Under the pieces are notes generated by a model, which did no database searches, was not told the origin of the DNA, and saw only the letters and a list, made by a program, of their open reading frames with translations. DNA of 58,353 bases from a virus (lineage: Duplodnaviria > Caudoviricetes), in the IMG/VR virus record IMGVR_UViG_3300047300_000852, positions 1-58,353 of that record; one strand, given 5' to 3'. Below, piece after piece: positions 1,556 through 57,906 of this stretch (its first letter is position 1; the number at the start of each line of letters is the position of its first letter). The translations under genes were made by a program, and so were the position numbers.

Positions 1556-2145
1556 GCACCTACCTTTTCCAAAGAGTCAGCTATAGCATTGAGAAACGCT
1601 TGGTGAGACTTCACCGATCCATCAATCTTCCCGGCATCGCGTAGGCGTCGAATCTCACGCATCAGTTCGATGTTGAATAGCCCCCAGTTCGCCCAGCCAA
1701 GACGCCCTATACGCTGTTCAACCTCACCCCGCAGAACGTCGTCAATCTTCGCTACGTCGGTGATCTCAGCCTTGGCTGTTTCCCTCAGTGCCTCAACGTA
1801 TTTTGGCTTGTCTGCACCTACATCATCCGAGGCAACCAGGGTCAGCCAAGTGGAAACGTTTCCAGTTTGGTCGTCCACCAGCACCGCATCAGGCTTGGTG
1901 TTTTCGCGGTCTTTGAGCAACGGCGCCAAGTAGGGCAAGATCGTAAACAGCGCGAGAATTCCAATACCCACAGCGTACCAATCCACCGCCCAGCCGTTCA
2001 TTTCCGCAACGTTGCTTTTTTTGCGTCGTCGCTTCTTCGGTGGAGTCGGTTCGGGTTCAGGCTTCGGTCGAGGTCGCTTCGGTCGCTTCGGTTTTACTTC
2101 CGGCTTGGTATCCGGTGCCGGTGCCGGTTCAGTTTCATCAGCCAT
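1552..2145 (-). CDS. Single-pass membrane protein with Pro/Lys-rich N-terminus
   Basis: Hydrophobic segment YAVGIGILALFTILPYLAPLL; ATGA overlap with the next gene. Confidence 0.7.
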   Translation of the reverse strand: MADETEPAPAPDTKPEVKPKRPKRPRPKPEPEPTPPKKRRRKKSNVAEMNGWAVDWYAVGIGILALFTILPYLAPLLKDRENTKPDAVLVDDQTGNVSTWLTLVASDDVGADKPKYVEALRETAKAEITDVAKIDDVLRGEVEQRIGRLGWANWGLFNIELMREIRRLRDAGKIDGSVKSHQAFLNAIADSLEKVGA

Positions 2146-2176
2146 AGTTCACCAATTTTCGTAACGTTACTTTTTT

Positions 2177-2419
2177 CTACTCATCGCCGTAGGTCTGATC
2201 GACGAGCTTACCCTTGAGCCAAGCGATTAACTGCTTAATTGCCCAACTCAGCAAGATGGAAAACAAAATGCTCGCAGGGTCAAAACGCATGACCATACGA
2301 GCATTCAATTCTTTAATCGCTTCGTCCTCAGTCAAACCCATCTCAACGATGGATCGAACTTCTTGCATCACTCGCCGCCGTTGCCTTAGCGGAAAACCTA
2401 GCCGCTGACGCCTTGCCAT
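2177..2419 (-). CDS. Small membrane-associated protein
   Basis: GAGG RBS; C-terminal hydrophobic/amphipathic helix. Confidence 0.65.
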   Translation of the reverse strand: MARRQRLGFPLRQRRRVMQEVRSIVEMGLTEDEAIKELNARMVMRFDPASILFSILLSWAIKQLIAWLKGKLVDQTYGDE

Positions 2420-2663
2420 ACTCTACCTCAGTTAGCCATAAGGCCACCACTAACACGAGCGCGAGCACCCCGCCAACGACAGGATAAAACAGGCCCGCAC
2501 ACGCTACCGCACCGGATATCCATCCTAGCACACTTTTAACCGATTGCTTCAAGTGCGAACACTGCTTGCCGCACTCGCACAACTTCGTCACCGCAACGTA
2601 GCAAAGTAAGATCACGGCCAACCGGCCAACCAACTGAACGATGAGCCAAGTGGATTCAGCCAT
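2343..2663 (-). CDS. Multi-pass membrane protein (lysis block)
   Basis: 2-3 hydrophobic segments; start moved to the ATG at 2663. Confidence 0.5.
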   Translation of the reverse strand: MAESTWLIVQLVGRLAVILLCYVAVTKLCECGKQCSHLKQSVKSVLGWISGAVACAGLFYPVVGGVLALVLVVALWLTEVEYGKASAARFSAKATAASDARSSIHR

Positions 2664-2979
2664 TTTCCTGTGCAAACCTTGCCGCACGCCGATTGATAAA
2701 CTTAATCAGCCGCCAGCCAACTAAGCCGGTCACGAAGGCCGATATCATTTCCGCATCCGCGCGATTGATGCGGTCTAATACTTTATCCGACAGCAGGAAA
2801 GCTTCGGCAAGTGAAATTGCCAACGGTGCACAAAACACCGCAGCCACCCAACCACAGAACAACCGCTTCGTCACGGAAGCAGTTGGGTCAGGTTCAGACG
2901 TTAAGACAGAGACCAACGATCCAGCGGCCCCAGCCTGTAAACGTGTGACAATTTCAGCCGACAAAAAAAGCAGGTCCAT
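2656..2979 (-). CDS. Putative holin
   Basis: 107 aa, about three TM segments, basic C-terminus, AGGAG RBS, late promoter upstream. Confidence 0.6.
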   Translation of the reverse strand: MDLLFLSAEIVTRLQAGAAGSLVSVLTSEPDPTASVTKRLFCGWVAAVFCAPLAISLAEAFLLSDKVLDRINRADAEMISAFVTGLVGWRLIKFINRRAARFAQENG

Positions 2980-2997
2980 TCTTGCGCTCCTGCGAGA

Positions 2998-3021
2998 ATG
3001 ATACTCAACCTTCGCCCACTA
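2998..3021 (-). promoter_or_regulatory. Late-class promoter (TAGTGGGCRA-N8-TAnnnT)
   Basis: TAGTGGGCGA-AGGTTGAG-TATCAT upstream of the holin. Confidence 0.7.
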
Positions 3022-3987
3022 TATTCCCCACTTAGTGAGCACCTGCCTCGCATGGGACAGCTTGTCTTTCGAGGTCGCAAGGTGAGCTATCTTTGCCTCA
3101 CCGAGCTTTTGCCAGAATCCTGGGAAGTAGAATTGCCAGTTGTATCGAGAATCCAATAGTTCGTAGTCCATCTTCAAAACGGCTTGCTCTGCGTAGACCT
3201 GCTCTGCGGTTTGCGTGATCGGAAGCGTTCTCGGCGGATCATCCCATACCGCAGCCGCATCGCTTCGAGTGTACACCACGCCCGTATTAAAACAGGTCGG
3301 CGGGTCAATCATTTCGATACTCAAGGCTTTGCCGATTCTGTTGCGCTCCTGCGATATCCATTCGGTCCGATACAGGTAGCTAAAATCATCATGGATCGCA
3401 ACTGACTTAGACCTACCGAATAGGCTTTCGCAATCCGGATGAACCAAGCAATCAGCATCCAAGAAAAGCACCTCATCATATTGCCCGATGAAATGCCGCG
3501 TTCGAAACTTTTCGAATCCCCACCACGGTTCGGTAATGTTGTTCAAAACGATGAAGTCAGCTTCGCACTTGTCCGCGTACGATTGCAATAGAGGCCCGGT
3601 AATCGACAGCAAGTCAGCAAAGGTCTTACCAGTCGCAATCGTAACGACGCAACGTGTACGGCTTGTTTGCGGCCTCAGATGACGCCACAGTGTCAAGGCT
3701 TCTTCAATGGAAACGTTTCCACTTCCAATCTTGTCATTCACCCGGTTATGCAACTCAACACCTGATGCAAAAAACGCTTCTGGACTCGAGTAGTCCCAGT
3801 CGAAGGTTTTAAGGATTTCATCGTACCCAGCACGGCATTGGCACCCAGCCGACGGAATGTACTTTTCCCATGATGCAATGAACTCAGGCGTATTAATTTC
3901 GCTCAGGTGAAGTCTTGACCACACAGGCAACGGAATAAGTCCACGACCTTGAGTCTCTACCTTGCGTCCATTCACTTTAATAATCAA
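3019..3987 (-). CDS. Erv1/Alr-like sulfhydryl oxidase domain fused to a GT-A (GT8-like) glycosyltransferase
   Basis: N-term W..LH...IPSAGCQCR..Y...VELHNRVNDKIG...SIEEA..LW; C-term FLDAD, FNTGV, EQ, YNW, IAH motifs. Confidence 0.75.
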   Translation of the reverse strand: MIIKVNGRKVETQGRGLIPLPVWSRLHLSEINTPEFIASWEKYIPSAGCQCRAGYDEILKTFDWDYSSPEAFFASGVELHNRVNDKIGSGNVSIEEALTLWRHLRPQTSRTRCVVTIATGKTFADLLSITGPLLQSYADKCEADFIVLNNITEPWWGFEKFRTRHFIGQYDEVLFLDADCLVHPDCESLFGRSKSVAIHDDFSYLYRTEWISQERNRIGKALSIEMIDPPTCFNTGVVYTRSDAAAVWDDPPRTLPITQTAEQVYAEQAVLKMDYELLDSRYNWQFYFPGFWQKLGEAKIAHLATSKDKLSHARQVLTKWGI

Positions 3988-7568: not shown

Positions 7569-8799
7569 TGATCGTCACTCCAACGCCTAGATCAAGCTCA
7601 ACATCCGCAAGCCGACAAGCCTGCAACACAACGCCCGCTGTGAATGTTACCTTGTCCAATGGATCAAGCAACGTTCCGCCTGCGTAGAGGTCACAAGCTG
7701 CTACCGTTTTCGTGGTGCCAACTCGCCCGAAGTTGATCGAACCGCCTTGCTCAACGTGTAGCTTCGTCGTGATGCCTGCCGAGGAATCCCAGTCAACCCC
7801 CGACTGCGAAGATACTTTGACCGTAGCAATCTGCGATGCCTTCGCCACCGTGACGCGTGAAGCATTGCGAGCAATCAACGTTGTGGCGTTGCCCTCAAGT
7901 AGCAGCACTCCACCGTAGATCGTAGCAGTTGTCACCGTGATATTCGATTCACTTTTCACCGATGGACCACCGGCAAAATTATCCCGCTGAATTACATCGA
8001 GGGTGGAAACGTTTCCACTTGATGCCGCCGTAATCACCAGCCCACCAGCATACGAACGCACCGTCGAACCAGCACCAGGATTGCGAAGTTCGTAGGGGTA
8101 TTGCACCCCTGAGTTCTGCCCGGAATTGATCAGGGAGTACGTTACGTTCGATCCAACCACATCGAGCCGAATGCGCCCTGAGAATGTACCCGGACCATAC
8201 CCAAGCGTTACCGTGATCGCTGAGCCACTTCCCAGGGTTAAATGATTCGTGCGGTACTCTGAGTACCCGAGGCTGTTCGTATCCGCTAACCCGATCTCCC
8301 CGGTGAACGATGCGTCAACCGTCAAGCTAGCGTAGTTGTTCGTATCGGTCAGCCCATACAGGATCGAAACGCTGGTATCCGCCACGATCAAGTCATCTGC
8401 CGCGCTCGGCAATGTCGCTGCGTCCCAGTTTGCCGCGACGTTCCAAAAGTTCGGACCACTAGCTGAGGTAGGCTGACTCACTGTAGCAGTTCCGGTCGTA
8501 GCCGTTGCCGTTACGGTGATCGGCACACCTGCTACCGCTGCGGTAAGTTGCAAGCCCGATAGCGTCGGATCCTCTCGCCTGGCTGCAACCATTTCCCGGT
8601 GCTCTGGTTCTGCTGATGAGTTCCACGCGTTGACCAGCGAATCGATCAGGTCACCGAGCGAAGTCGTAGCCGCTGTAATGCTGACCGTCTTACCATTGAT
8701 CGCTACCGAGTATGTATTCGTGGCAACGATCGAAGAAAAAACAACCTTCGTAATTTGTGCGACCGATGCCGCTTTGCCAACCCATCGCTTAGTTGCCAT
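7561..8799 (-). CDS. Minor tail protein, beta-rich
   Basis: Thr/Gly/Ala-rich beta-helix-like sequence; SGPNFWNVAANW motif; position. Confidence 0.6.
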   Translation of the reverse strand: MATKRWVGKAASVAQITKVVFSSIVATNTYSVAINGKTVSITAATTSLGDLIDSLVNAWNSSAEPEHREMVAARREDPTLSGLQLTAAVAGVPITVTATATTGTATVSQPTSASGPNFWNVAANWDAATLPSAADDLIVADTSVSILYGLTDTNNYASLTVDASFTGEIGLADTNSLGYSEYRTNHLTLGSGSAITVTLGYGPGTFSGRIRLDVVGSNVTYSLINSGQNSGVQYPYELRNPGAGSTVRSYAGGLVITAASSGNVSTLDVIQRDNFAGGPSVKSESNITVTTATIYGGVLLLEGNATTLIARNASRVTVAKASQIATVKVSSQSGVDWDSSAGITTKLHVEQGGSINFGRVGTTKTVAACDLYAGGTLLDPLDKVTFTAGVVLQACRLADVELDLGVGVTING

Positions 8800-13575: not shown

Positions 13576-13599
13576 ATTGTAAACACCTCTTGCCCACTA
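13576..13599 (-). promoter_or_regulatory. Late-class promoter
   Basis: TAGTGGGCAA-GAGGTGTT-TACAAT. Confidence 0.75.
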
Positions 13600-13914
13600 G
13601 CTAGCCGACGGAACGCCGTACATCGGCCCCACTTCATCGCGGTATAGGTAGCTTTCACCCTTCACCGCTGGAGCATTCGCGGGGATGACTTCACGAGGTG
13701 CAAACCGAAAACAAGCCTCAAACAATGCTCGTGCTTCTTCTTCCGTTTCCGCCTTGGCTAGCCTTGCATCAGCTATCCACCAGCCATCTACGATTCCCTT
13801 CGTTTCTGCACGTTTTTCGCTCTCAGCGCTGGAAACGTTTCCACCTTCGCCAAAATTCGCAATGTTGCTTTTTTCCGAATTTACTGGAAACGTTTCCACT
13901 TTTTGCTTCGCCAT
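13597..13914 (-). CDS. Hypothetical protein whose gene carries two class A sites and one class B site
   Basis: AAGGAG RBS; TAATG coupling. Confidence 0.65.
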   Translation of the reverse strand: MAKQKVETFPVNSEKSNIANFGEGGNVSSAESEKRAETKGIVDGWWIADARLAKAETEEEARALFEACFRFAPREVIPANAPAVKGESYLYRDEVGPMYGVPSAS

Positions 13915-18558: not shown

Positions 18559-19044
18559 TCACCGCAGAACCTCTGCAAGACGCTCCACGGACATATAACC
18601 CGATACCTCAACGCTCCGGGCGCAGTCGGTGACAAGGAAGTGAGGCACTCGACTGTACCGATACTCGGTATCCTCACTCAACGCGATTCTCCATCCCAAG
18701 CGACGAAACCTTTCAGCTTCTTGCCCGAGCCATCGCTTACATTGCACACAATCCGACCGCGTGAACATGATGATTTCAGGCACCACATCAGACGCAGCGG
18801 AACCGGGATTGTTGCCGTTCTTCTTTCGCTCCGCGAGCATCTCTTCGTAGGCTTGACGCATCGCATCAATCAAGCGTTCCATATCGTCAGGGCTGGACGC
18901 TTTCCCTGCGTTTTCATTGGTTGCGCCACTCATCCACCTGGAAACGTTTCCACCTTGCGTACCGAGTCCATAGCCCAAAGCTACGCAAAGTAGCAAGGCA
19001 ATCAGGCCACCGACAGCAAAAAAAGGAACGTTGTGTTTTTCCAT
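18559..19044 (-). CDS. Membrane-anchored thioredoxin/glutaredoxin-like protein
   Basis: N-terminal TM segment; MFTRSDCVQC, VPHF and SGY motifs. Confidence 0.75.
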   Translation of the reverse strand: MEKHNVPFFAVGGLIALLLCVALGYGLGTQGGNVSRWMSGATNENAGKASSPDDMERLIDAMRQAYEEMLAERKKNGNNPGSAASDVVPEIIMFTRSDCVQCKRWLGQEAERFRRLGWRIALSEDTEYRYSRVPHFLVTDCARSVEVSGYMSVERLAEVLR

Positions 19045-24105: not shown

Positions 24106-26270
24106 TAGGGGTAATCCTTCCAGCGTTCGAGCATCGCACGTTGACGGCCTGTGAGTGATTCAGACTCCTTGATGCGGGTCACGTTCGCAAGGTCAGGATT
24201 TACCTTGAGCAACCAAGCCTCACGAACAAACGTCTTACCATCCCAAGGAAACAAATCACCGACCGATTCCTTCAGCAGTTTGGATACGCTCGGACGCGAC
24301 CAGAAACGGCATGACCAGTATCGGGCCTTCCACCTTGGGCCGGGATCGTCGCAGTTGTGGCGTGCCCTGAATCCTTTGCGGCGGCCCGGCTTGTCACGCT
24401 GAATCCGCATGTTCGGATCCCCGAAGTTTACCTTCACCGTATTGCCTTTGTCGTTCTTCACGTAAACTGCGAACTTCTTCGGTCCTCCAGGCGTGCGGAA
24501 TGGCCTTCCGAGGGTCTTGCGTTCTGCCTCAGTCAGTGGGCTTGGTTCAGCCTGAATTGGAGCTTCGTCATCTAGCAAACCGTCGATATCCTGCGATGCC
24601 AACCCGATTGACTTGAGCAGCACCGACGCTACTTGCCGGGTCACTTTCCCGCTGAGGTAATCAGTCAAAACATCGGTGACTGCCTTTCGATTCCTCTGCC
24701 ACTGCAAACGCGAAATTCCCTGCCATTTCGATGATTCCTCCTCGATCTGCCTGGAAACGTTTCCACTTTCAGCATCGTCGGCGCTAGAAACGTTTCCACT
24801 TTGATCAGGCGTCCCAGGCCGCTGTTCAGCCGCTTTCACCACTAGCCCGTTCGCAGTCTCAACGTCGATATCCCGACCGAGTTCGTTGATTGCGGTCTTA
24901 TCTGACACCCAGCCGTTCGCCTTTTGTAGCTGCAGCGCTTGAGTCATCTCAAGTACGTTACGCGGTAGGATTCTCGCCAGTATCACTTCGACCGTCATCT
25001 GATCCTTGAGCATATCGAAACTGTCGATGCCATGATGCCGGAATCGCCCCTTCTCAGCCCCTACGCGAATGATCTTGAGAAGCATTTCCCGCATTCGCTC
25101 AGCCCGTTGAACTTGCTCAGCTTGTCGGCCTTGCATGAACGGACCTTCAGCCACCAAAGCCGATGCAAGGTTTGCGTTCTCATAGCTTCCGGTAAGCATT
25201 CCTTCCGGGAATCCGTGTACCGTTCCGGCAAGTCTCAAGGCCGCTTCCATCACCTGAACGTAAATGTCTGAGTTGTTCGAGCCAAGTAAACCTGCCTTGT
25301 ACTGTTGGCCCACTGGTACGTCTAAACGCGTGCCTGGAAGCATTCTCCGCCGACGCTGTGCCAATCCCGTCAGGGGATCAATCTTGCCCGTCAGTGGAGC
25401 AAATCGCGTGACGATGTTGTTCGCCTGACGCTGCGTTCCCTCTTTGTGCTCAACGATGTACGCGATAGCCGCCTGAGTTGCTGCCCCTTCCGCCGTATTG
25501 GTGAGCACCCTATCGGCCCGGAGCAGATACAAGTGCGGCTTGTAAAAGTCACTGAAACCGCGCTTGGCTCGTCCGCGAACGTTGCGCTTCCAGAATATTA
25601 CGTTTCGTTCGGGCACGTAATCCCAGTCCGTACCGTCCAGTGATCGCACCATGTGGTAGCCGATATGCCGCTCCGGTAGGTTCTTTTTCGTCAGTACTCC
25701 GAAGCTCCAGGAAGGGACGTACGAATCAATTCCTAGCCAATCCTCTAGCGCTCGCTTGTCCGATGGTTCGGTCAATTCATCCGGCTCGCGGGCTACCATC
25801 AAGCACTGCCCGTCATCATAGACCAACTCACCGAGGAACTCACCGTCAGCGATTTCCCGAACGTACGTTTCACGCTCCAGTTCCGAGGACCACTTCGAGA
25901 GGTCAAGGGCTTCGCGTACGTAGTTCTGGATCGCTTTCGTCAGTCGGTCATTGTCGGTCTTGATCGTCCAATCGAACCCAGTGCCTATCGTGTAGTCAAG
26001 CAGGCGGTTCACCCATGCCTGAGCCATTGGCACCTTCTCAACCAGCAACCAACTCATCGCGCGAATCAACTTCAAATCAGACTCGTTTTGATACACTGGG
26101 CGGAAGCGTCCGTCGGCCCGGTCGTAAATCTGCGTGAATGCTCCGAGGCCGTTCGTATTGAAGAACCCCGCCGAGTCAGTCATAAATTCTGTGATATCGA
26201 CCGGCTCGCCCCATGATTCCTGGAGTCGGTCATCTTCTGCAATTGTTCGCAAAGTCTCTACAATGTTCAT
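24105..26270 (-). CDS. Portal protein with long C-terminal extension
   Basis: DGE, RGFSD, G.PE.MLTG...NANLAS motifs of lambda-type portals; first gene of the head operon. Confidence 0.85.
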   Translation of the reverse strand: MNIVETLRTIAEDDRLQESWGEPVDITEFMTDSAGFFNTNGLGAFTQIYDRADGRFRPVYQNESDLKLIRAMSWLLVEKVPMAQAWVNRLLDYTIGTGFDWTIKTDNDRLTKAIQNYVREALDLSKWSSELERETYVREIADGEFLGELVYDDGQCLMVAREPDELTEPSDKRALEDWLGIDSYVPSWSFGVLTKKNLPERHIGYHMVRSLDGTDWDYVPERNVIFWKRNVRGRAKRGFSDFYKPHLYLLRADRVLTNTAEGAATQAAIAYIVEHKEGTQRQANNIVTRFAPLTGKIDPLTGLAQRRRRMLPGTRLDVPVGQQYKAGLLGSNNSDIYVQVMEAALRLAGTVHGFPEGMLTGSYENANLASALVAEGPFMQGRQAEQVQRAERMREMLLKIIRVGAEKGRFRHHGIDSFDMLKDQMTVEVILARILPRNVLEMTQALQLQKANGWVSDKTAINELGRDIDVETANGLVVKAAEQRPGTPDQSGNVSSADDAESGNVSRQIEEESSKWQGISRLQWQRNRKAVTDVLTDYLSGKVTRQVASVLLKSIGLASQDIDGLLDDEAPIQAEPSPLTEAERKTLGRPFRTPGGPKKFAVYVKNDKGNTVKVNFGDPNMRIQRDKPGRRKGFRARHNCDDPGPRWKARYWSCRFWSRPSVSKLLKESVGDLFPWDGKTFVREAWLLKVNPDLANVTRIKESESLTGRQRAMLERWKDYP

Positions 26271-27696: not shown

Positions 27697-27732
27697 TGGT
27701 CCATGCTCCTTTGCAGGTGGAAACGTTTCCAG

Positions 27733-29798: not shown

Positions 29799-29899
29799 GT
29801 TTGAACCTCAAAAAAAGTAACGTTGCAAATTTACCGCCACCCTATCAACGCCACCGGGCCAGTTAAGTACACCAGCCCGGAAACATTTTCGCCAGAAAC

Positions 29900-30982: not shown

Positions 30983-31028
30983 TGGTAAAACCTTCAAAAA
31001 AGGGAATTCGAACTGGAAACGTTTCCAG

Positions 31029-31752: not shown

Positions 31753-31794
31753 TTTCACCTCATAAAACTGGAAACGTTTCCACCTAAACCACCA

Positions 31795-33565: not shown

Positions 33566-33802
33566 CTTTCAGCCCTCCAACAGAACAATGCCACCGAGCG
33601 ACAGAAGTACACCAACAACATGGAACAAACTGGAAACGTTCCCACTTCCAGCCATATTTAACACACCCCCACTACAGGGGGTAGGCGCTGGAAACGTTTC
33701 CAGCTACTTTCGGAGAAACAACGAAAAACCCTGCGAATCTCAGCGTTTTCATTTTGAGACTATTGCAAGTTATTGACGGCAAAACTTCGGATATACGCAA
33801 CG

Positions 33803-37140: not shown

Positions 37141-38304
37141 CTAAGCCTTGACTGCTTTTCGCCCAGTCAGTTTTTCCCATCGAGCGATGATTACGTCACA
37201 GTATTTCGCATCGATCTCCATGCCGTAGCAACGCCTGTTGAGTTGTTCCGCTGCAATCAATGTTGTTCCTGATCCTAAAAATGGATCGTAAACCATTTCG
37301 CTTTGCATTCGTTCGAGACACCATACGAAAAGCTCAACAGGCTTTTTTGTTGGATGCTCAACATCTCGTGTCTTGCCTCGCTCTGACTGTTGATTGATAG
37401 ACTTGATGTAGCATCCTCTTCCGCCTTTTTGCCAAGCTAATTCGGCATCGGCAAGGAAACTCGTTCCGTCAGCGCTTCTCTTGTCCCATATCAACCACGA
37501 TCCAACAGGCAATGAAGATCCGTAGAGGTTCGCCCCCCACAAAATGACATTCTCAGCGAATAAAAGAGTACTCGCATCAAACTGTTGATTATCGCCCCTG
37601 ATTTCCGCGTACTGGCTACTGCAAGTTTTCACAGCCTTTTTAGTAAACCGCGTGTAATCACCGTTCCATTTTATTCCGTATGGTGGATCGGTCAGAACGC
37701 AATCAATTGTTGCCCCTGCAAGTAGCCGATCAACCTGTGACTGATCGCTTGAGTCACCACATAGTAACCTATGCTCTCCAAGTATCCACAAGTCACCAAC
37801 CTTGCAAACAGGCTCTGCGTCCTCAGGTACGCTGTCCAAGTCTGAATCACCGTCCGACTCCGGTTCCGGGTCGAAAATCTTCGCCGCTTCGCCTAACTCG
37901 GTGAACCAGTCTGCTAGCTCTTGGCTCGAAGTGTTGACCGTTCGCAGCAACTCTTCCAAGTCGCAAGCATCCACCTCAGCAAGCTCACTCGACGCATCAA
38001 GGATCAACAGCAGCTTGCGTTCGTCCTCCTCTGATAGATCGACGTACTCAACATCAACCAGCGTTTCATCACCAGCGCCGAGGGCTTGCATCACGCGTTC
38101 GTGACCGTCAACGATGTAGCCGGTTCGCTGGTTGACTATCACCGACTTGCAGAACCCTAGCTCCTCAATCGAGGCCGCTACCACTTCCCGCTGCTTCTGC
38201 GGGTGCCTTCGGTGGTTTCTTGGGTTCGCCAACAGTTGATCGGCTCGAACCTTATCGTGCCCGACGATACGGCTCTGCCACTTGTTCGGCTTATTCTTCG
38301 CCAT
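37141..38304 (-). CDS. ParB-N domain fused to an amino-DNA methyltransferase
   Basis: NPRN.R.H, IVDGHER; TDPPY, HPT.KP, DPFLGSGTT. Confidence 0.9.
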   Translation of the reverse strand: MAKNKPNKWQSRIVGHDKVRADQLLANPRNHRRHPQKQREVVAASIEELGFCKSVIVNQRTGYIVDGHERVMQALGAGDETLVDVEYVDLSEEDERKLLLILDASSELAEVDACDLEELLRTVNTSSQELADWFTELGEAAKIFDPEPESDGDSDLDSVPEDAEPVCKVGDLWILGEHRLLCGDSSDQSQVDRLLAGATIDCVLTDPPYGIKWNGDYTRFTKKAVKTCSSQYAEIRGDNQQFDASTLLFAENVILWGANLYGSSLPVGSWLIWDKRSADGTSFLADAELAWQKGGRGCYIKSINQQSERGKTRDVEHPTKKPVELFVWCLERMQSEMVYDPFLGSGTTLIAAEQLNRRCYGMEIDAKYCDVIIARWEKLTGRKAVKA

Positions 38305-38381
38305 TGCTGCGCCTTTTGAGTGTTCGGAAGTGGAAACGTTTCCAGTATACCCACCTGCGAACGCATTGCAAAACGTAGCTC

Positions 38382-41198: not shown

Positions 41199-41617
41199 TT
41201 CCCTAACTCACACATAACGCACTTACGATCGGTGCAACACGCGCCGCACCGCACACAACGCCAACCCCGGAAGGCTAGCTCACCATACTCGTTCCGCCTG
41301 ATCACCTTGTGCATTGAGGCACGCAGTGATGCAATTTCTTTCACCGGGTGCGGCTCAGCAGCCGTGACCAGTTCTCTGCCTTTACGCTTCTGCTTGCGGC
41401 ACCTGTTGCAAGTCCGTCGCGTCCGACTGTAGAACGTGTTTCCGCAGGCACACATTCGTTCTGCGTCAGTCCCTGCGTACCGCTGCTTCCACTTCTCCTG
41501 CTGGTAGGCCGCACAAGCTTCGATCATGCCCGGTACCGAACACGGTTGACACATCCGCGATGATGCCTGCTTAGGTGCACCGCACTTGCAAAAATCTCGC
41601 TTGTTCTTGTTGCCCAC
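41195..41617 (-). CDS. Cys-rich zinc-binding protein
   Basis: Multiple CxxC/CxC; GGAGG RBS before GTG. Confidence 0.6.
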   Translation of the reverse strand: MGNKNKRDFCKCGAPKQASSRMCQPCSVPGMIEACAAYQQEKWKQRYAGTDAERMCACGNTFYSRTRRTCNRCRKQKRKGRELVTAAEPHPVKEIASLRASMHKVIRRNEYGELAFRGWRCVRCGACCTDRKCVMCELGK

Positions 41618-41699
41618 TGAATCACCTCCTACCAACACAACGCCACCGACTCATCAAAGTACACTAGTCAGCAGCTCAAAAAGTGGAAACGTTTCCAGG

Positions 41700-42372: not shown

Positions 42373-43791
42373 TCAGCACGCCTTGATTCTTGCAAACCGC
42401 CAACCGCAACGATTTCCATGATCGTCCTCAGCACAAAAACGAAAATCACCAGGAGGCAAAATAACAACAAAAATAAGATCGTTCCATTCAGCTTTTTCGC
42501 TATCCCTGACCTCTACCCTCTTGCCAATATCATCGTTGGTCGGCTCGCGGTACTGCGGCTCCTTCACCGGTTCGACCTTGCGACCATCGAACGGTTCACG
42601 CTCGTCAACCCATACGCCTTCAACATCGTCAAAGTATCCAGGCTTAGCAGTCGAACTATTCGGAGTTTCCGAAGGGTTCGCAGGTTCGATCTTGCGAATG
42701 ATCCTCCGCGAGTAGTACCTAGATTCGACATTGCAATCGCTTAGTAGATCAATCCACTGCCCGTCAATGTCAACATCGTCGCCAGTCTTTGGCACCTCAT
42801 CCGGCTCCAACTCCCTCCATCCTTCCGGTATCGCAAGCGGTTCACTGCTTGAACTATTCGGAGTTACCGAAGGGTTGGCGGTTTTCGTGGCGTCGGCATT
42901 ATGGTCGGTGGGATCTTCTGCGGGTTCAATAAGTTCGAGTTGTTCGGCCCTTAGGTTGAACGAAGTAAGGTTTTCTCGATCAAGCCGAACCGCGTATTCC
43001 CCAGCGTCGCCTTTAACGCATTCGACAATAACACCAACCTTACCATCAGCTATCCTGCCCAGTTTGTTCACCACTACCTTATCTCCAACGCTCGGCGTCC
43101 ACGGCTTAAGAGCGCCAAGTGTGTACATTATGTTCGTGCCATGAAATCCGTATAAGACTGTACCATTGACGATCTTGACGCATTTTACTTTTGCAACTTT
43201 ACCTTCCGGAAGTCGCACCCATCCATCAATCTTTGGCTCCCATTCTGAATACTTTTCCGGCTCAACGCGTGAATCCTCGAAGCAACCTTCCTTAGCGTTC
43301 CATTCGCTGCGCAGCACTAGCCCGTCTCTATCCGGTGCACCGATCGCGGCTCCTGCATCAATCCCAGCTTGATAGCCGTCGATCATTTCTTTCAGTTCCG
43401 ACTCGTACTCAGGCCACTTACCAACAGCGAACGAATCATCGAGCACAGCCGAACTCATTCGCACCAATCGACCGTCAGCCACTTTCGCCAATTCCGTAGC
43501 GTAGATCCCTACTTCATGCAACTCCAGCTTACCGTTGACGTAGATAGCTTCATCGCCTTCGCCATCCGTATACACGCTCAAGTACGTCGTCACACCGGCA
43601 CCGAAATCACTGGAAACGTTTCCACCTGATAACGGCTTTAACACGCTCGATTCATCGATCACCCCAGCGCCGTAAACACTTGCAACGCTGTAAACACTGC
43701 CCGATACCGGCTTGACCGCTACCGGCTTCACTTCCACCGTGAACCCATCGCCGATGATCTCAGCGATGAGCTTTTGTATCTTATCTTTCAT
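42373..43791 (-). CDS. Mosaic multi-module protein (KOW/SH3-like units)
   Basis: VGDKVVV..G.I motif; internal repeat ANPS.TPNSS; shares a module with 31363..31752. Confidence 0.7.
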   Translation of the reverse strand: MKDKIQKLIAEIIGDGFTVEVKPVAVKPVSGSVYSVASVYGAGVIDESSVLKPLSGGNVSSDFGAGVTTYLSVYTDGEGDEAIYVNGKLELHEVGIYATELAKVADGRLVRMSSAVLDDSFAVGKWPEYESELKEMIDGYQAGIDAGAAIGAPDRDGLVLRSEWNAKEGCFEDSRVEPEKYSEWEPKIDGWVRLPEGKVAKVKCVKIVNGTVLYGFHGTNIMYTLGALKPWTPSVGDKVVVNKLGRIADGKVGVIVECVKGDAGEYAVRLDRENLTSFNLRAEQLELIEPAEDPTDHNADATKTANPSVTPNSSSSEPLAIPEGWRELEPDEVPKTGDDVDIDGQWIDLLSDCNVESRYYSRRIIRKIEPANPSETPNSSTAKPGYFDDVEGVWVDEREPFDGRKVEPVKEPQYREPTNDDIGKRVEVRDSEKAEWNDLIFVVILPPGDFRFCAEDDHGNRCGWRFARIKAC

Positions 43792-43818: not shown

Positions 43819-44277
43819 CTATTTTCCAAACACTTCCCGAAGTTGCTCCAACGCTCGACTAACCACGTTCGCCGCACCTTGCTTCGTCAATCCGATCGAC
43901 TCGCCGACTTCCTCCAAAGTCATCCCCTCAAAGTATCGCAATCGGATCACCTCACGCTGTCTTGCGTCCAGGCACGCTAACGCGTCGTGCAACTGGTCAA
44001 CTTCCTCACAGTGGATCAACGCCGCCAGCGGGTTCGAGTAAACCACGTTCGGAGTTTTTTCGAAGTATTTCTGGTCGCGTTTCTTGGATCGGAACGCAGC
44101 ACGCGCCGCACTCTTCGCAGTCCAGACAGCCTTCTTCCTTGGTGCCTTGGCGTAGCTTTGCAGGATAGCAATTGCCGCATCTTGGAGTACGTCGTCGATA
44201 TCCACCCGATCACGTACGGGGAGTAAAACGTTTCCGATGATTCCTTCGATGCCCTTGAGAGATTCCAAAGCGTTCAT
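43819..44277 (-). CDS. ECF-type RNA polymerase sigma factor
   Basis: DDVLQD region 2; L..RQREVIRLRYFEGMTLEEVG..IGLT...SRAL..LR region 4. Confidence 0.85.
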   Translation of the reverse strand: MNALESLKGIEGIIGNVLLPVRDRVDIDDVLQDAAIAILQSYAKAPRKKAVWTAKSAARAAFRSKKRDQKYFEKTPNVVYSNPLAALIHCEEVDQLHDALACLDARQREVIRLRYFEGMTLEEVGESIGLTKQGAANVVSRALEQLREVFGK

Positions 44278-45764: not shown

Positions 45765-47365
45765 GTCTTAATCCTCCCGGTCCATGGGTACACATCAGAA
45801 ACGAGCTTGTGCCATTCCATCGAGTGACGTTCCGGAGGCTTGAATCGCAGTTGCTTCTCGTCCGGATACAACCCCTCAGCCCTGCATCTTGCCGCCCACA
45901 TCGCAACCGCACTGCTAACCGGCTTGCCGCTTCGAGCACAAGCGTAAAGCACCGAAATCCAAATCTGCGGTACCGTCTTGCTCTTGCCCTTCTTCTTGAT
46001 CTTCGTGACCAACCCCCGCATCAACTTCAGGTCACCCGATACCATCATCACCTTACGCGCTGACTGCTGGTGCGAATGACCACAACCAGGGCACCGAGGC
46101 CCGTACTGCCTCCACACCGAGCACTTCGGGCAACATATGCCCTCAACGTCCTGCGGTTGCTCGGCTCGTGCAATCTTTCGTGCTCGCCCCTCTGCAATGC
46201 TCTTGTTCGTGCAACCTAGTTCCCATTCCCTATCCGCGTTCGGGCTTCCGTGTCGGTGAAAACTTCCGCCGTGATCTTGTAGCACCTTGAACTGATAGTC
46301 AGGGCAGAATCGCTGGATACGCCCTACCGATTGCAAAAACGTTGCGATACCACCAAACACCGTAGCCGCGATGCCATGATACAGCCACGGCATATCAATC
46401 GCTTCACGCAATACGAATCGATTCATCACAACCTTAATCTCACCAGTTCGGCTCATGTCCATGATCGCCGCTCGAGTCTCTTCGTTCGTCTCGTACGTCT
46501 CGAGCTTCACGGATCCAGCCGTACCGCGTGAAGGTAGCAAGCACGTTTCACCGTCGATATGCGCGACCGGGACGCCCATCTTCGCCCACTCCTCAGCAAA
46601 CCAACGTGAGGCCGGGACGGATGGAGCAAACAGAATAGCCGGCAAGCTATCTGGATTCAGCTTTCGCCAGTTAAGGTACGCATCGCCGAATATCTTGTAC
46701 GCTCTTGGCTCCAACGCCTTCGAACTGTACTCGTTATCTGAGTCTCGATTCAGCCCAGTACAATCAATCTCGCTCGGAGAGTACACACGAACCGGCAAGT
46801 GGGCTTTTACCTTCCGCATCTCTGAGTACGTTCCGAAGTCGATCAACTCTTTGTAGATCGATCCACAGTTTACCGGGGTCGCCGACATTCCGAGCACGAA
46901 TGCACCTCGCTCGATATGCCCAGCCATCCTCAGCCCGTTATCGTTCGTCGATCCATTTACGATCGAAATCGCCTTGTTCTTCGTCTGCAAGTGGGCTTCG
47001 TCGAACATCACCAGCGAAGGCTCCTGCAAGTCCCATTTACTTTTGAGCACTGCCCGGGAATAGACCGAATCCGTCATGCAAATCTGAATCGGCTTGCTCT
47101 CGTCGTACTCGCATCCTGCTGCCATCACTCCGTGATCCAATCCCGCCGCCGTAAAGGTCTTCGATAGCTGCTCACGCAACATCGTTCGGTGCAGGTAGAT
47201 TCTCACCGTACCGCCTGCCTGCACTTCCTCAGCGGCCAATTGCTGCATCACGCGGGACTTCCCGGCCCCGCATGGCGCAGCCGCTACAACGGCCTGCACC
47301 CCTCGCAACCTTGCGTTTCGGATCGCTTCTTTCGCTCGATCTTGGTGAGGCCAGTTTCCACTCAT
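45761..47365 (-). CDS. SF2 DEAH-box helicase with C-terminal zinc ribbon
   Basis: GAGKS, DEAH, SATP, Q.VGR..R, CPKC..CPGC. Confidence 0.9.
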   Translation of the reverse strand: MSGNWPHQDRAKEAIRNARLRGVQAVVAAAPCGAGKSRVMQQLAAEEVQAGGTVRIYLHRTMLREQLSKTFTAAGLDHGVMAAGCEYDESKPIQICMTDSVYSRAVLKSKWDLQEPSLVMFDEAHLQTKNKAISIVNGSTNDNGLRMAGHIERGAFVLGMSATPVNCGSIYKELIDFGTYSEMRKVKAHLPVRVYSPSEIDCTGLNRDSDNEYSSKALEPRAYKIFGDAYLNWRKLNPDSLPAILFAPSVPASRWFAEEWAKMGVPVAHIDGETCLLPSRGTAGSVKLETYETNEETRAAIMDMSRTGEIKVVMNRFVLREAIDMPWLYHGIAATVFGGIATFLQSVGRIQRFCPDYQFKVLQDHGGSFHRHGSPNADREWELGCTNKSIAEGRARKIARAEQPQDVEGICCPKCSVWRQYGPRCPGCGHSHQQSARKVMMVSGDLKLMRGLVTKIKKKGKSKTVPQIWISVLYACARSGKPVSSAVAMWAARCRAEGLYPDEKQLRFKPPERHSMEWHKLVSDVYPWTGRIKT

Positions 47366-48210
47366 GTTAGTCCCTGCAACTTTCTCGTTATGGCTTCGAT
47401 CTCAGTACGCAACACATGGGAGCATTTCGCCGCATCGCAAGCCCGGATAAACTGCCCCCAAACCTGATGCACTTTCGGCATCTTGTTCGGGTCCGGGTCT
47501 GGAAACGTTTCCACCTGCACCGGCTCGGAAGTACGGGTATTCGCAGGGTTCTTGATCTGCGGAGGCTCGATCACATCATCGACCGGACACAAGCAAACCC
47601 TGCAAACATTACCCCCATCGCTTAGCCGTTGTTCGGTAGCTCCACACTCCACACAACGCCACCCAGGGGGAGAAGTAAACTCAGTTTCTTCCTCGCTCTG
47701 AATATTCGAAACGTTGCTTTTTTCTGCGCGTTGCACTGGTTCGACTTGCTCCTCAGCGATCGCATGGTCCTTCGGTTCGTCAGCCCTGCGCATCGATTGA
47801 ACGTACGCATGACTAACGCCGCAAATCTCTGCTATCTCCCTCGAACTCAGGTCAGGGAAGTTAGTAATCGCAATCGTCGCGGCTCGCTTTTTGTCCGCGT
47901 TCGAACGGCGCAAACCATGCTGAGCATTCGCACCGCAAGCCGCCTTGAGTGCATCATGGAATGAGCCAGCGTGCACCTCACACGGGATGCGAGACTTCCC
48001 GACGCTCGTTGCCGCCATCACGCGACAGAACCCATCCACTACCAGGAACTCATCATCGACTTGATAAACCTGCACAGGTGGAAACTTCGCTTGGTTTTTC
48101 CACCCTTCGCGGTACTCATCGATGATCGCTTGCGGTACCTCGGTTCGGCATTGCAGCCGAGAGTCCAGCACTAGTAGTTCCGTCGCTAAATTTCTTTTCT
48201 TTGCCGCCAC
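47362..48210 (-). CDS. ParB-family protein (ParB-N/CTPase-like domain plus HTH)
   Basis: FPPV.V..VVDGFCRVMAA (GxxRxxA), N..HGL, SSREIAEICGVSHAYV HTH. Confidence 0.85.
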   Translation of the reverse strand: MAAKKRNLATELLVLDSRLQCRTEVPQAIIDEYREGWKNQAKFPPVQVYQVDDEFLVVDGFCRVMAATSVGKSRIPCEVHAGSFHDALKAACGANAQHGLRRSNADKKRAATIAITNFPDLSSREIAEICGVSHAYVQSMRRADEPKDHAIAEEQVEPVQRAEKSNVSNIQSEEETEFTSPPGWRCVECGATEQRLSDGGNVCRVCLCPVDDVIEPPQIKNPANTRTSEPVQVETFPDPDPNKMPKVHQVWGQFIRACDAAKCSHVLRTEIEAITRKLQGLT

Positions 48211-49215: not shown

Positions 49216-49300
49216 GGCAACCTCCTATCGTAAAACGTGCCACCAAAACAACGCCGCCGATGCGACTCAGTACACAAACAAAAAACCAAAATTCGCAACG

Positions 49301-50667: not shown

Positions 50668-51120
50668 TCAGTTATAGATCACTGTTGCGTACCAACCGAA
50701 TCGACCACGCGCCACGCCGATCTCACGCACCGGCCTGCGTCCCCAGTAGCAACACGCTCTGATGGCGGCATCCGGTGAACTCGTGGAGTATCCAACGCCC
50801 TCGTACGATCCACCGCCGAACCCGCCGCCAACGTGACGCATTCGCCCTTCCGCAGCTTGTCGCTCTGCTTTCCACTGAGCCAACCCGTTCGCACAAACGA
50901 TCGACCGTATAGGCTGGGACTCACATACCACATGCTCAACCACGCGTACCGGTACTTCGACCGCCGCAACCACCACATCGGCAACGCGTGACACCACTCG
51001 GTCCGAGGGACTTTTCGCACACTGACCGGTCACGCATTCCTGACCGAAAGCTGGAAACGTTTCCAGCGCGAACAACGCAACCACCAACAAAACCATTGTT
51101 TTCATCTTCGAAAACTTCAT
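50668..51120 (-). CDS. Secreted protein with CAP/SCP-like C-terminus
   Basis: Signal peptide; H.GG...EGVG...CCYW...GVA.G..GWYA motif. Confidence 0.7.
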   Translation of the reverse strand: MKFSKMKTMVLLVVALFALETFPAFGQECVTGQCAKSPSDRVVSRVADVVVAAVEVPVRVVEHVVCESQPIRSIVCANGLAQWKAERQAAEGRMRHVGGGFGGGSYEGVGYSTSSPDAAIRACCYWGRRPVREIGVARGRFGWYATVIYN

Positions 51121-51188
51121 TCAACCATCCTCCATAAATCGGGAAACAAACCTACCACAACCTAACAACGCCACCGAGCTGAGCCTGT

Positions 51189-52329: not shown

Positions 52330-52571
52330 TACAGCCCTCGATTCGCTTTGAGCCAAGCAACTTCCGCAGCAATCGCCTCTGATCGCAGCTTGCACGTTGC
52401 CAACACTGGACCGCCTACCGGTCCCATATCCGCCGCCCAACCACCTTCGACCGGCTCAACGTGTGACGCCCGACGGATGGAAACGTTTCCAATCTCATCG
52501 AGCACATCAGCCGCATCATCATCATAGATCAACTCGACCGATCTACCGATTACCAGCGTTATTTCTTGCAT
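52329..52571 (-). CDS. Conserved small protein (I.RASHVEP..W.AD..PVGGP.L...RSEA.AAEV.WL)
   Basis: Motif I recall accompanying DUF1257/DUF2997 clusters; needs a search to confirm. Confidence 0.7.
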   Translation of the reverse strand: MQEITLVIGRSVELIYDDDAADVLDEIGNVSIRRASHVEPVEGGWAADMGPVGGPVLATCKLRSEAIAAEVAWLKANRGL

Positions 52572-53170: not shown

Positions 53171-53575
53171 CTACCTCGCCAACGTTAACTTGATACGTCC
53201 ATCCGCTTGCAACTGCTCGCGAACACTGAATCCCTGTTTCTTCGCCTGCTTACGTGCCACCTCAACCGCGTACGCTTGCTGAAGCTTTCCGAGGCCCTTG
53301 ATATCATCCTCGAATGCAACTTGATTCTGCATTCCCATACCCCGGCACCACGGATCGTACGATAGGCGAATCTTACCGCCTTCGAGGTGAACACCGATCT
53401 CGTACGCCTTGCTGTTTCCTGGTACAGCAATCGCCGCGTCACAGTCGCTGACCCTGCGACCGTACCACGTGAACTGCTTCTGGTCCCTGCGTAGCTCTAC
53501 CCCGCACTTCGTGCACGCTTTCGCAAGGCAGTCCAGGTCCTTGAACTCAATCTCTACCGTAGCAATATGGCTCAC
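53171..53575 (-). CDS. DUF1257 (Ycf35-like) protein
   Basis: MSH......KD...L..A, YEIG, L.QAYA.E......GF.V.E....G.I.L. Confidence 0.85.
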   Translation of the reverse strand: MSHIATVEIEFKDLDCLAKACTKCGVELRRDQKQFTWYGRRVSDCDAAIAVPGNSKAYEIGVHLEGGKIRLSYDPWCRGMGMQNQVAFEDDIKGLGKLQQAYAVEVARKQAKKQGFSVREQLQADGRIKLTLAR

Positions 53576-53656
53576 TTTGCACCTCGTTTTAGACTCTCAA
53601 AAGTGGAAACGTTTCCACCTACTTAACGCCGCCAACCAATAAAAGTAACGTTGTTT

Positions 53657-54565: not shown

Positions 54566-54629
54566 CGTTCAACCTTTCGAAAAAAAGTAATGTTCCTTTT
54601 TTTAACGCCACCCAGTCGGAAAAGTAAAC

Positions 54630-56090: not shown

Positions 56091-56253
56091 CGTCAAAACC
56101 TCCATCATGGAAAAAAGAATCTTACCCACCAGAACAACGCCACCGAGCAAAAAAAGTAAACTTGCTTTTTTCTGAAACGCAAACAGGCCGAACACGGCCC
56201 GCCTGCAAAATCACTGGTGACTCACTAATTCAGCCTGGAAACGTTTCCAGCGT

Positions 56254-57251: not shown

Positions 57252-57305
57252 GATTCCAATCCTTTTCTGAGACTTCCAACACAACGGGGATCATTTCCCC
57301 TCACA

Positions 57306-57340
57306 TATACCTAGGCTTACTTTCGAATCCCACTAGGCGC
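57306..57340 (-). promoter_or_regulatory. Early-class promoter
   Basis: GCGCCTAG-N16-GCCTAGGTATA. Confidence 0.75.
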
Positions 57341-57363
57341 AGAATCCAAAAACTTTTCTTGGT

Positions 57364-57415
57364 ACCCATACGCCCGAAGGCGTTTCGCTGGAATTTCACC
57401 AGCTCATCAGTGGGC
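57364..57415 (-). ncRNA. Type I hammerhead ribozyme
   Basis: GCCCA CUGAUGA GCUGG-UGAAAUU-CCAGC GAAA CGCC-UUCG-GGCG UA UGGGU; canonical core. Confidence 0.92.
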
Positions 57416-57690
57416 TAGCAGTACCAAACTTGCACTTCGGTGTAGTTGGCTTTGGCGTAGGCCAGGGTGCTTTCGAACGTCGCGTTGGTGTCCTTGTTGA
57501 CAGCCTTGACCACGCTACCCGATCCGTCAACGACCTGAATCAACTCACCGCCGTTTCCGGTCATTTGCCAAATCTCCACAGTTTTTCCGGCTTTGTTACG
57601 GCAGGTGAAGTGCCGCCAGCCGTTTTTGCGAGTGTGATCGTTAGCCTTACTTGCTGGGGAGATACCGCGATTTGTTGCTACGTTATCCAT
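57415..57690 (-). CDS. Early hypothetical protein
   Basis: AAAGG RBS; start moved to ATG 57690. Confidence 0.7.
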   Translation of the reverse strand: MDNVATNRGISPASKANDHTRKNGWRHFTCRNKAGKTVEIWQMTGNGGELIQVVDGSGSVVKAVNKDTNATFESTLAYAKANYTEVQVWYC

Positions 57691-57741
57691 GATTTCTACC
57701 TTTTCAGAGTTACAACACACGGGCAACGTTTTGCCCTCATA

Positions 57742-57776
57742 CATACCTAGGCAGATTACGCCGACGAACTAGGCGC
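57742..57776 (-). promoter_or_regulatory. Early-class promoter
   Basis: GCGCCTAG-N16-GCCTAGGTATG. Confidence 0.75.
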
Positions 57777-57906
57777 GGACAGGTAATTTTATTTCCAAAA
57801 AGTGGAAACGTTTCCAGCGCCTAGATCATTTTCCCAATGTTTTCATTGGTCGGACGTTTTCAGACTCGCAGAAAAAAAGAACGTTACTTTTTTCTTGATT
57901 GACCGC

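Follow-up and report, generated by a model that had tools for sequence, protein, structure and literature searches.

The DNA analysed here (the window) is the whole of an IMG/VR virus record, IMGVR_UViG_3300047300_000852, with a length of 58,353 bases and an estimated completeness of 97%. From position 1851 to position 57816, and hence over the whole window, it carries 20 exact copies of a 14-bp perfect palindrome, TGGAAACGTTTCCA. Selection acts on these sites as DNA; related phages retain them at orthologous places, and in a sister clade they have been re-specified together. We give about an even chance to the proposal that the palindrome is the site of a dimeric DNA-binding protein encoded by the phage, the likeliest candidate being a ParB/KorB-like protein of 282 amino acids (aa) that would serve as a genome-wide regulator or coat. 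The case for this reader rests on the DNA-level selection, on the lineage-specific specificity of the sites, on the ParB-like fold of the protein, on the even spacing of the sites, and on the lack of any other dimeric helix-turn-helix (HTH) protein among the approximately 50 open reading frames (ORFs) included in our family scans.

An initial annotation, made from the sequence of the window, had described 20 perfect copies of the palindrome, separated by gaps never above about 6 kb, and our analysis bears this out. By contrast with the 20 copies in the real sequence, 100 dinucleotide-preserving shuffles of the window contained none. Allowing up to two mismatches added only six further copies (three with one mismatch and three with two) against 0.26 expected; with so few near-copies, the site family is close to all-or-none. 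The largest gap between copies is 5,826 bases. In 5,000 random placements of 20 sites on the circularised record, a largest gap this small was rare (P = 0.004), as was a coefficient of variation of spacing this low (P = 0.003), and spacing is also more even than random in two related complete genomes, G002 and G006 (P = 0.03-0.04). The base immediately before the palindrome (position -1) is G or C in 18 of the 20 copies, and the base immediately after it (position +1) in 19 of the 20. We considered whether the palindrome is longer than 14 bp, and rejected this: the flanks are G or C, but they are complementary in just six of the 20 copies. The initial annotation had also placed about half of the copies inside genes, where they force the peptides ETFP or GNVS into the encoded proteins; indeed, with coding and non-coding sequence assigned by our own simple gene caller (86 ORFs called), 10 copies are coding (seven GNVS and three ETFP) and 10 are non-coding. 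A full-text literature search, covering articles without their supplementary files, did not find either this 14-mer or its sister-clade form, TGGCAACGTTGCCA, as a string.

To place the sites in an evolutionary context, we compared the window with related IMG/VR records. Eleven of these, found by a scan for the exact word and by searches with the ParB-like protein, form a group that we term clade A. They encode ParB-like proteins with 46-57% identity to that of the window, and all 11 carry TGGAAACGTTTCCA, often at orthologous positions. The complete genomes have 23 copies (G002 and G006) or 11 (G008), and the clade-A fragments between 2 and 12 each. G002 and G006 combine their 23 exact copies with zero one-mismatch copies, and one-mismatch copies are essentially absent across clade A, with the exception of G012, which has two exact copies and five of the TGTAAACGTTTCCA type. 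A further four records (G016-G019; clade B) were found with a profile of more distant full-length homologues. Clade-B phages carry TGGCAACGTTGCCA in place of TGGAAACGTTTCCA, with 14 copies in 27.7 kb of G017, four in 9.9 kb of G018 and 17 in 27.6 kb of G019. With the exception of that of G016, the clade-B ParB-like proteins are 48-50% identical to the window's, which is as close as clade-A members are to one another. The 20 sites of the window are as follows, with the strand of each gene in brackets; G020, which appears in two of the entries, is an outgroup described further below.

1851..1864, in coding sequence (CDS) 1552-2145(-), encoding GNVS; at the same position in six clade-A relatives.
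3708..3721, in CDS 3019-3987(-), encoding GNVS; no counterpart at the aligned position in relatives.
8004..8017, in CDS 7561-8799(-), encoding GNVS; also in G002 and G006.
13830..13843, in the 105-aa CDS 13597-13914(-), encoding GNVS; also in G009 and G007, and G020 has its own 20-bp palindrome here.
13885..13898, 16 nucleotides (nt) into CDS 13597-13914(-), encoding ETFP; common to six clade-A relatives.
18939..18952, in CDS 18559-19044(-), encoding GNVS; also in G002, G006, G008 and G007.
24752..24765, in the 721-aa ORF 24105-26270(-), encoding GNVS; orthologous in clade A, with the clade-B variant in G017; a one-mismatch copy lies nearby at 24785.
27718..27731, intergenic, 6 nt upstream of a Shine-Dalgarno sequence and ATG on the - strand.
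31014..31027, adjoining the 3' end of tRNA-Arg(TCG) 31028-31102(-), upstream of a DnaN-like gene.
31769..31782, intergenic, approximately 16 nt upstream of gene 31363-31752(-).
33689..33702, intergenic, downstream of the large terminase (TerL) block, with a G020 palindrome at the corresponding place after the TerL block; a one-mismatch copy lies nearby at 33631.
38331..38344, 26 nt upstream of the ParB_N-methyltransferase gene 37141-38304(-); orthologous in G009 (clade A) and in G017 and G019 (clade B).
41684..41697, intergenic, with a promoter-like GGTGGCGTT approximately 50 nt downstream on the coding strand.
43611..43624, in the 472-aa CDS 42373-43791(-), encoding GNVS; the gene has no homologue in any relative.
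47500..47513, inside the ParB-like gene 47362-48210(-), encoding ETFP; in 11 of 11 clade-A relatives (as a variant in G012), with the clade-B variant in G017-G019.
51052..51065, in the signal-peptide region of CDS 50668-51120(-), encoding ETFP; orthologous in G002 and G006, with the clade-B variant in G018 and G019.
52478..52491, in the 80-aa CDS 52329-52571(-) upstream of an exonuclease VIII-like gene, encoding GNVS; orthologous in seven clade-A records, and GNVA in clade B.
53604..53617, 7 nt downstream of a promoter-like GGCGGCGTT and 28 nt upstream of the DUF1257 gene 53171-53575(-); the layout is identical in every clade-A record that covers the DUF1257 promoter, and in clade B.
56236..56249, intergenic, on the upstream side of the AAA ATPase gene 54630-56195(-); clade A and G019 have orthologous copies.
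57803..57816, intergenic, where the early region starts.

Selection acts on the DNA word rather than on the peptides that it encodes, as the initial annotation had argued. Across 12 related records, 47 of the 49 GNVS peptides and all 31 ETFP peptides (78/80 in total) are encoded by the exact 14-mer, where amino-acid composition predicts only approximately 1.8 GNVS and 0.9 ETFP. Since nearly all of them come from the exact 14-mer and few are expected from composition, we regard these peptides as by-products of the DNA motif. The same 12 records contain 125 sites, of which 44 (35%) are intergenic, as compared with 8.9% of the DNA; the other 81 are coding, and encode GNVS (47 sites), ETFP (31 sites) or WKRF (three sites). 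At orthologous sites anchored without gaps, the 14-mer is identical in sequences whose flanking 60 nt are just 50-75% identical, and a word that stays constant amid diverged flanks must be under selection as DNA. For 12 of the 20 window sites, one or more relatives have a copy at the aligned position. Separately, we note that five or six of the window copies lie in or directly beside genes without a counterpart in any relative (genes of this kind near copies, all on the - strand, are 42373-43791, 41195-41617, 33302-33565, 27415-27696 and 57415-57726). The sites may mark the borders of swapped gene cassettes, or newly arrived DNA may soon gain a site.

The clade-B sites occupy the same orthologous positions as those of clade A, and differ from them in a consistent manner. 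Inside the ParB-like gene, VETFP becomes VATLP, and in the 80-aa gene before the exonuclease gene GNVS becomes GNVA. Other shared positions are in the signal-peptide gene, in the 721-aa ORF, and upstream of the AAA ATPase and ParB_N-methyltransferase genes, and at the DUF1257 promoter the clade-B site follows the -10-like element at a distance of 6-7 nt, as it does in clade A. The change from clade A to clade B is thus a symmetric one, A4C together with T11G, that has been made across a set of sites with the amino-acid changes following. A whole set of sites that has changed symmetrically is the signature of a single trans-acting reader with altered specificity.

More distant relatives suggest how such an array could arise. 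G020 is a complete 74-kb genome with approximately 45 genes in common with the window. It contains neither TGGAAACGTTTCCA nor TGGCAACGTTGCCA; a related 20-bp palindrome, AAGTGTAAA(AA/TT)TTTACACTT, occurs three times, namely in the orthologue of the 105-aa gene (the gene with two sites in the window), behind the terminase block, and ahead of the early region. G023 (67% complete) encodes a full-length ParB-like homologue and has no high-copy palindrome in 40 kb; three TGGGT-N8-ACCCA repeats in this record are possibly due to chance, and we set them aside. Two additional records that were reached via a helicase, G021 and G022 (57-59% complete), lack both gene and word in the parts that are present. 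With three sites in G020 and no dense array in G023, the dense array looks like an expansion from a few sites.

One of the sites lies within the gene of the candidate reader, as the initial annotation had reported:

47362..48210, - strand, ParB/KorB-like protein, 282 aa, matching phrog_1033 (1.5e-16).

Residues ~1-100 form a ParB/Srx-type N-domain (with the motifs LQCR, DGFCRVMAA and GANxxHGLRR), and residues ~104-144 an HTH (REIAEICGVSHAYVQSMR) whose helices, in an AF2 model, span residues 104-117, 123-130 and 134-144. These are followed by a disordered linker, a CxxC...CxxC zinc ribbon (residues 186-208) and a helical hairpin (residues 236-281). The AF2 model was built on 53 homologues and has a pLDDT of 86, and of at least 95 over residues 1-145. 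Foldseek matched it to ParB (7bnk, 6sdk, 6t1f), Noc (7ng0, 7nfu) and KorB (8qa9, 8qa8), with E values of 3e-7 to 3e-5, in alignments of 139-153 columns that extend through the DNA-binding domains of these proteins; PadC and sulfiredoxins were also matched. A profile of the 53-sequence family likewise matched sulfiredoxin (3.3e-7) and ParB (7.4e-6), a four-sequence profile gave nothing significant against the PDB, and HTH_23 was matched by seven of the 53 homologues. Hence, the description of the product as a ParB-like protein with an HTH holds. The N-domain family to which it belongs is large, with 16,482 cluster representatives at E<=0.001, almost none of which is named.

Modelling of the protein as a homodimer gave a median score of 0.43, against 0.00 for the best control, on a scale where the same score was passed by 20 of 30 solved pairs and by one of 23 single chains. 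The predicted interface consists of residues 236-281, with contact agreement between runs of at least 32% and a partner pLDDT of at least 62. This prediction supports dimerisation via the C-terminal hairpin, and a dimer of this sort would fit a palindromic site. The gene is present in all 15 motif-bearing relatives that cover the region, with a site inside the gene itself. No integrase, immunity repressor, ParA, LacI-family protein or other dimeric HTH protein was detected among the ORFs that were family-scanned. Consistent with the initial annotation, in which no ParA was seen, the ParA-type deviant Walker A motif (KGGxGK[ST]) is absent from all six frames of the window.

Several observations weigh against the ParB-like protein as the reader, and they qualify the initial annotation, which had proposed a ParB-family protein loading as a clamp dependent on cytidine triphosphate (CTP). 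The assignment to the ParB family stands on the fold, the HTH, the profile and the PHROG match; it does not extend to Pfam, where the window protein has no match at E<=0.01 and ParB_N (PF02195) is absent from a six-frame search of the record. Within the family, Pfam ParB_N is matched by 12 of the 53 members, and precomputed PF02195 annotations are found for 11 of 44 homologues. As for the clamp, a profile alignment to the ParB proteins of M. xanthus and Thermus puts Q20-x-R22 on QPR and A94-N95 on E-N, and puts G60-F-C-R63-V-M on GERRWR. To judge from this alignment, the Q-x-R, the Gly and second Arg of the GERRxR motif and the Asn would be kept, whereas a Glu and two Arg would be lost (GFCRVM), so that the nucleotide-binding motif appears to be retained in part. 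One study of KorB describes a protein that retains CTPase activity with the sequence GARRYR, and in which R117 and N146 are critical residues (PMC11790492); the counterparts of these two residues in the phage protein are R63 and N95.

Co-variation of the motif with the HTH, which the initial annotation had suggested as a check, is ambiguous at the level of residues. The recognition helix differs between groups: clade-A proteins have GVSHxY(V/I)(Q/G), those of clade B have either GVSHTYID or KLSHTFVA, and that of G020 has KVSVPLVG. However, no residue tracks the A-to-B change cleanly: clade-A proteins have Q, G or V at one helix position and share the same motif, and the two clade-B lineages have no helix residue that is both shared and unique to them. 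Moreover, the split into two clades would be followed equally well by any gene that these phages carry, or by their host. G020, with three sites, and G023, with no high-copy palindrome, still have the gene, which means that the array is not an obligate companion of the ParB-like protein. Lastly, the idea that motif and gene go together in relatives is upheld within this phage group, where 15 of 15 covering motif-bearing relatives have both, but the exact 14-mer is also found in several copies in unrelated phages without a detectable ParB-like homologue, and in a bacterium, G306, where two exact copies and one near copy lie within 2590-2780 of locus L295.

If the ParB-like protein is nonetheless the reader, we envisage that its two HTH domains, joined by the C-terminal hairpin, would each read one TGGAAAC half-site, and that some 20 evenly spaced sites would let the protein occupy the whole chromosome. 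A site directly after a phage promoter, such as that of DUF1257, could then act as a plain operator, and intragenic sites could act as roadblocks, nucleation points or loading sites. Once bound, the protein might also spread or slide in the manner of ParB or KorB, as a nucleotide-gated clamp. A more elaborate scheme, which we consider quite improbable, is that a lytic-type phage uses a KorB-like, nucleotide-gated clamp with approximately 20 loading sites in coding DNA to coat or silence its chromosome, and that the clamp may recruit the ParB_N-methyltransferase, through engagement of the N-domains, to mark only phage DNA; the sister clade would then be a natural specificity-switch pair.

The alternative that survives best, although we judge it unlikely, is that a transcription factor of the host, of the LacI/GalR type or another dimeric HTH family, binds the sites, and that the phage uses them to couple its expression or replication to the state of the host, or to titrate the factor. 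In form, the 14-mer is like a 14-bp operator centred on CG, and it presumably resembles the LacI/GalR consensus. In G306, the copies lie directly after sigma-70-like -10 boxes between divergent genes for a GH16 hydrolase/deacetylase and a TonB-dependent receptor, a layout typical of an ordinary cellular operator of the sugar-regulon type. At least 115 IMG/VR stretches carry TGGAAACGTTTCCA, and 15 of the matches listed belong to the phage group studied here. Another eight loci among the matches listed belong to a Mu-like group unrelated to the window (L035 and L044, in records G015 and G005, and L024, L033, L041, L053, L072 and L094), which has conserved copies at two places, ahead of the tape-measure gene and within a baseplate gene (AGNVSSV), usually with GC...GC(G) flanks. 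A third set of 31 loci among the matches listed shares genes with G004, a record with three intergenic copies that include a tandem pair. The window has no protein in common with G004 or the Mu-like phages, and tblastn with ParB-like proteins (E<=0.1) detected no ParB-like homologue in them. The presence of the word in unrelated phages, together with its operator-like placement in G306, indicates that cellular regulators can use it, and a host factor may thus be the reader; the A-to-B switch could mirror a change of host.

Nevertheless, the initial annotation's suggested scan of bacterial chromosomes gave no candidate host. The 14-mer occurs in six of 401 sampled Pseudomonadota genomes, the same number as for the reversed control and hence at background level. 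The GC-flanked 18-mer occurs in 31 stretches scattered across many phyla, with one copy in each, and five such genomes have a single 14-mer each; no bacterial genome with multiple copies was found in these searches. The word falls on a conserved M-ETFP peptide of one protein in 25 of the 31 G004-like loci. This protein belongs to a large family, whose members an exact-word search would select by itself, and we have therefore discounted these 25 as independent support for a shared factor. Furthermore, 20 exact, evenly spaced copies, many embedded in coding sequence, are unlike the known use of a host sugar regulator by phages.

A second alternative is that another phage protein reads the sites (a small unannotated protein, the ParB_N-methyltransferase or a sigma-like protein), and that the ParB-like protein has some other target; we hold this to be less likely than a host factor. 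Approximately 35 of the 86 called ORFs, all small, lie outside the family scans, and many conserved early proteins have no family. The methyltransferase is a plausible candidate in that its gene has been kept in all groups, with a site just upstream:

37141..38304, - strand, fusion of ParB_N to a DNA methyltransferase, 387 aa, matching N6_N4_Mtase (4.3e-17) and phrog_498 (1e-77), with ParB-like PHROGs on residues 17-216.

However, methyltransferase identities ignore the split between the clades: those of G019, G017 and G016 are 69%, 46% and 38% identical to the window's, as compared with 46-79% within clade A. The right half-site, GTTTCCA, resembles the -35-like GT(T/G)TAC of the phage promoters, which could point to a sigma-like reader, but sigma region 4 binds asymmetric elements as a monomer. 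No other HTH was detected among the scanned proteins. Quite apart from this question, the fusion, which the initial annotation did not mention, is kept in all related groups including the outgroup G020, and it is possibly a partner of the ParB-like protein or an alternative player.

Lastly, it is very unlikely that the palindrome has no dedicated binder and functions as an RNA hairpin (a terminator, processing site or translation signal), as a cruciform, or as short homology for module exchange by the Erf/exonuclease system: transcription of every copy (all genes being on one strand), the excess of intergenic sites, many of them 16-28 nt before start codons, the T-run after three window copies, the five or six copies at window-specific genes, and the retention of base pairing by A4C/T11G would all suit such a role, but the hairpin is weak (-3.1 kcal/mol, with a 5-bp stem), for which reason we reject an RNA hairpin or terminator as the main explanation, the ACGT loop and all stem positions are invariant, a sign that the sequence itself and not a structure is read, hybrid sites whose asymmetry disrupts the pairing are tolerated (the five G012 copies), and even spacing with sites deep in long genes is a misfit for a terminator or start-site signal.

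With a ParB/KorB-like reader as the preferred explanation, the closest precedent is KorB and its operator OB in plasmid RK2, which has 12 OB sites. The two systems have in common a ParB/Srx N-domain followed by an HTH, a dimer (predicted, for the phage protein), a short palindrome repeated round one replicon with some sites at promoters and others far away, and regulation without the need for ParA. The phage differs in its further-reduced motif (GFCRVM), in a C-terminus composed of a zinc ribbon and a helical hairpin, and in having 11-23 sites per ~60 kb, half of them in coding sequence. We identified no KorA or TrbA homologue in the phage. Similarly, ParB-parS and the Noc-binding site (NBS) system share with the phage the N-domain and HTH fold and the use of 14-16-bp palindromes with a central CG or ACGT; Noc has many dispersed sites, and B. 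subtilis spo0J has a site within its own gene, as does the phage ParB-like gene. By contrast, the phage has no ParA motif, no match to Pfam ParB_N and a C-terminal domain that appears to differ, and the sites are on a phage genome; the order of the half-sites also differs, we assume, from that of parS and NBS. The phage-plasmid N15 has four dispersed SopB palindromes, some among late genes, with SopA (ParA) as a partner, and persists as a plasmid prophage, whereas the phage described here has 20 sites, lacks a ParA motif and gives no indication of living as a plasmid. Operators of the LacI/GalR type resemble the sites in being 14-bp CG-centred palindromes, and the identical 14-mer is placed like an operator in G306, but they differ in copy number, intragenic placement and even spacing, and no LacI-family protein was found among the scanned phage ORFs. 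Cluster A mycobacteriophages also have one short site spread genome-wide, the stoperators of the L5 repressor: published descriptions give more than 20 copies, a single phage reader that affects initiation and elongation, and site and repressor specificities that co-evolve (PMC9283540; PMC6550527). Stoperators are described as asymmetric 13-mers that are bound by a monomer, oriented with transcription and located in short intergenic gaps (PMC9283540). Unlike these, the phage site is palindromic and its candidate reader is a ParB-like protein; moreover, coding sequence contains 10 of the 20 copies of the window and 81 of the 125 found across the clade. The case thus differs from each known system in site symmetry, intragenic placement, a reduced nucleotide motif or C-terminal architecture.

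If the ParB-like protein does read the sites, the phage would be one whose entire genome is organised or regulated by a ParB/KorB-type protein in the absence of ParA, and in which site selection is strong enough to dictate amino acids in unrelated proteins. TGGAAAC and TGGCAAC half-sites at the same positions, together with an outgroup that has three sites, would provide a ready system for studying how a protein and approximately 20 sites change specificity together, and the same comparison would show the expansion of a few operators into a genome-wide array. A function for the N-domain family would annotate many phage genes, and it would be relevant to the ParB_N-methyltransferase fusions, as yet unexplained, that are widespread among phages. 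If, instead, a host factor reads the sites, unrelated phages would have converged on the site of one host regulator.

The phage is uncultured. One freshwater metagenome run contains the whole stretch and may be its source; 23 other listed sequencing runs contain only small shares of it, and there is no RNA run among the 24. Megablast with 20 kb of the window gave no match in 50,697 phage records, and a tblastn search for a cultured relative with the 721-aa ORF and the ParB-like protein gave only partial, distant matches. Nearly all genes of the window are on the - strand. Besides the ParB-like gene (47362-48210), the family scans name an AAA ATPase (54630-56195), the DUF1257 protein, an exonuclease VIII-like gene, an Erf-like gene, two helicases, a RusA-like resolvase, an ECF-like sigma factor (43819-44277), two N6/N4 methyltransferases, one of which is the fusion to a ParB_N domain (37141-38304), a large terminase with an intein, a DnaN-like clamp, an HNH protein, a GNAT protein, and head and tail genes.

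A strand-specific promoter-like motif, GT(T/G)TAC-N11-GGYGGCGTT, has 11 copies on the coding strand of the window and none on the other. Most copies are 30-60 nt before the starts of early-region genes, the strand bias is found in every clade-A record, and clade B and G023 have other consensus words. The motif, which is found beside some palindromes, is probably read by the ECF-like sigma factor. We rejected a general link between palindrome and promoter motif: a single window copy (53604) lies directly after the motif, and the promoter consensus differs in clade B. The sigma factor and copies of the motif are:

43819..44277, - strand, ECF-like sigma factor, 152 aa, matching Sigma70_r4 (3.6e-14) and phrog_1740.
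53625-53633, - strand, promoter-like motif.
56136-56144, - strand, promoter-like motif.
54604-54612, - strand, promoter-like motif.
51167-51175, - strand, promoter-like motif.
49250-49258, - strand, promoter-like motif.
41639-41647, - strand, promoter-like motif.
29847-29855, - strand, promoter-like motif.
495-503, - strand, promoter-like motif.

A second palindrome, centred on AACGTT and of the form A-run-G(T/C)AACGTT(A/G)C-T-run, occurs as approximately 14 intergenic repeats in the window, where AACGTT is found 67 times in total against approximately 14 expected from length. The clade-B equivalent is A-run-GTAGCATTGC-T-run. This element may be a terminator or a further regulatory site. Its cores, in the - reading, are at about the following positions:

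57879, second palindrome.
43811, second palindrome.
37054, second palindrome.
33798, second palindrome.
33294, second palindrome.
32267, second palindrome.
29818, second palindrome.
27410, second palindrome.
20201, second palindrome.
12654, second palindrome.
2162, second palindrome.

Near several of the 14-bp palindromes, both in the window (57750-57790, 27660-27700 and 18880-18930, - strand) and in relatives, is the word CAATGAAAAC-N3-GGGAAA(A/G), which sometimes begins small ORFs (MKTQGKRP, MKSKGKHP, MKTLGK-stop). The large terminase subunit, 34139-36529(-), is split by an intein (Intein_splicing, 9e-13, residues 221-517), and the G020 orthologue of the 329-aa ORF 563-1552 has, judging from its sequence, an apparent inserted Hint/LAGLIDADG-like segment. 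In the 721-aa ORF 24105-26270(-), the C-terminal ~100 residues (within residues 560-686) match small stand-alone proteins of viruses of Roseobacter, Pelagibacter, Flavobacterium and Nitrosopumilus, labelled 'HVA1 family' in two records. A Shine-Dalgarno sequence and ATG lie right after the palindrome at 24752, making an internal start of this ORF possible.

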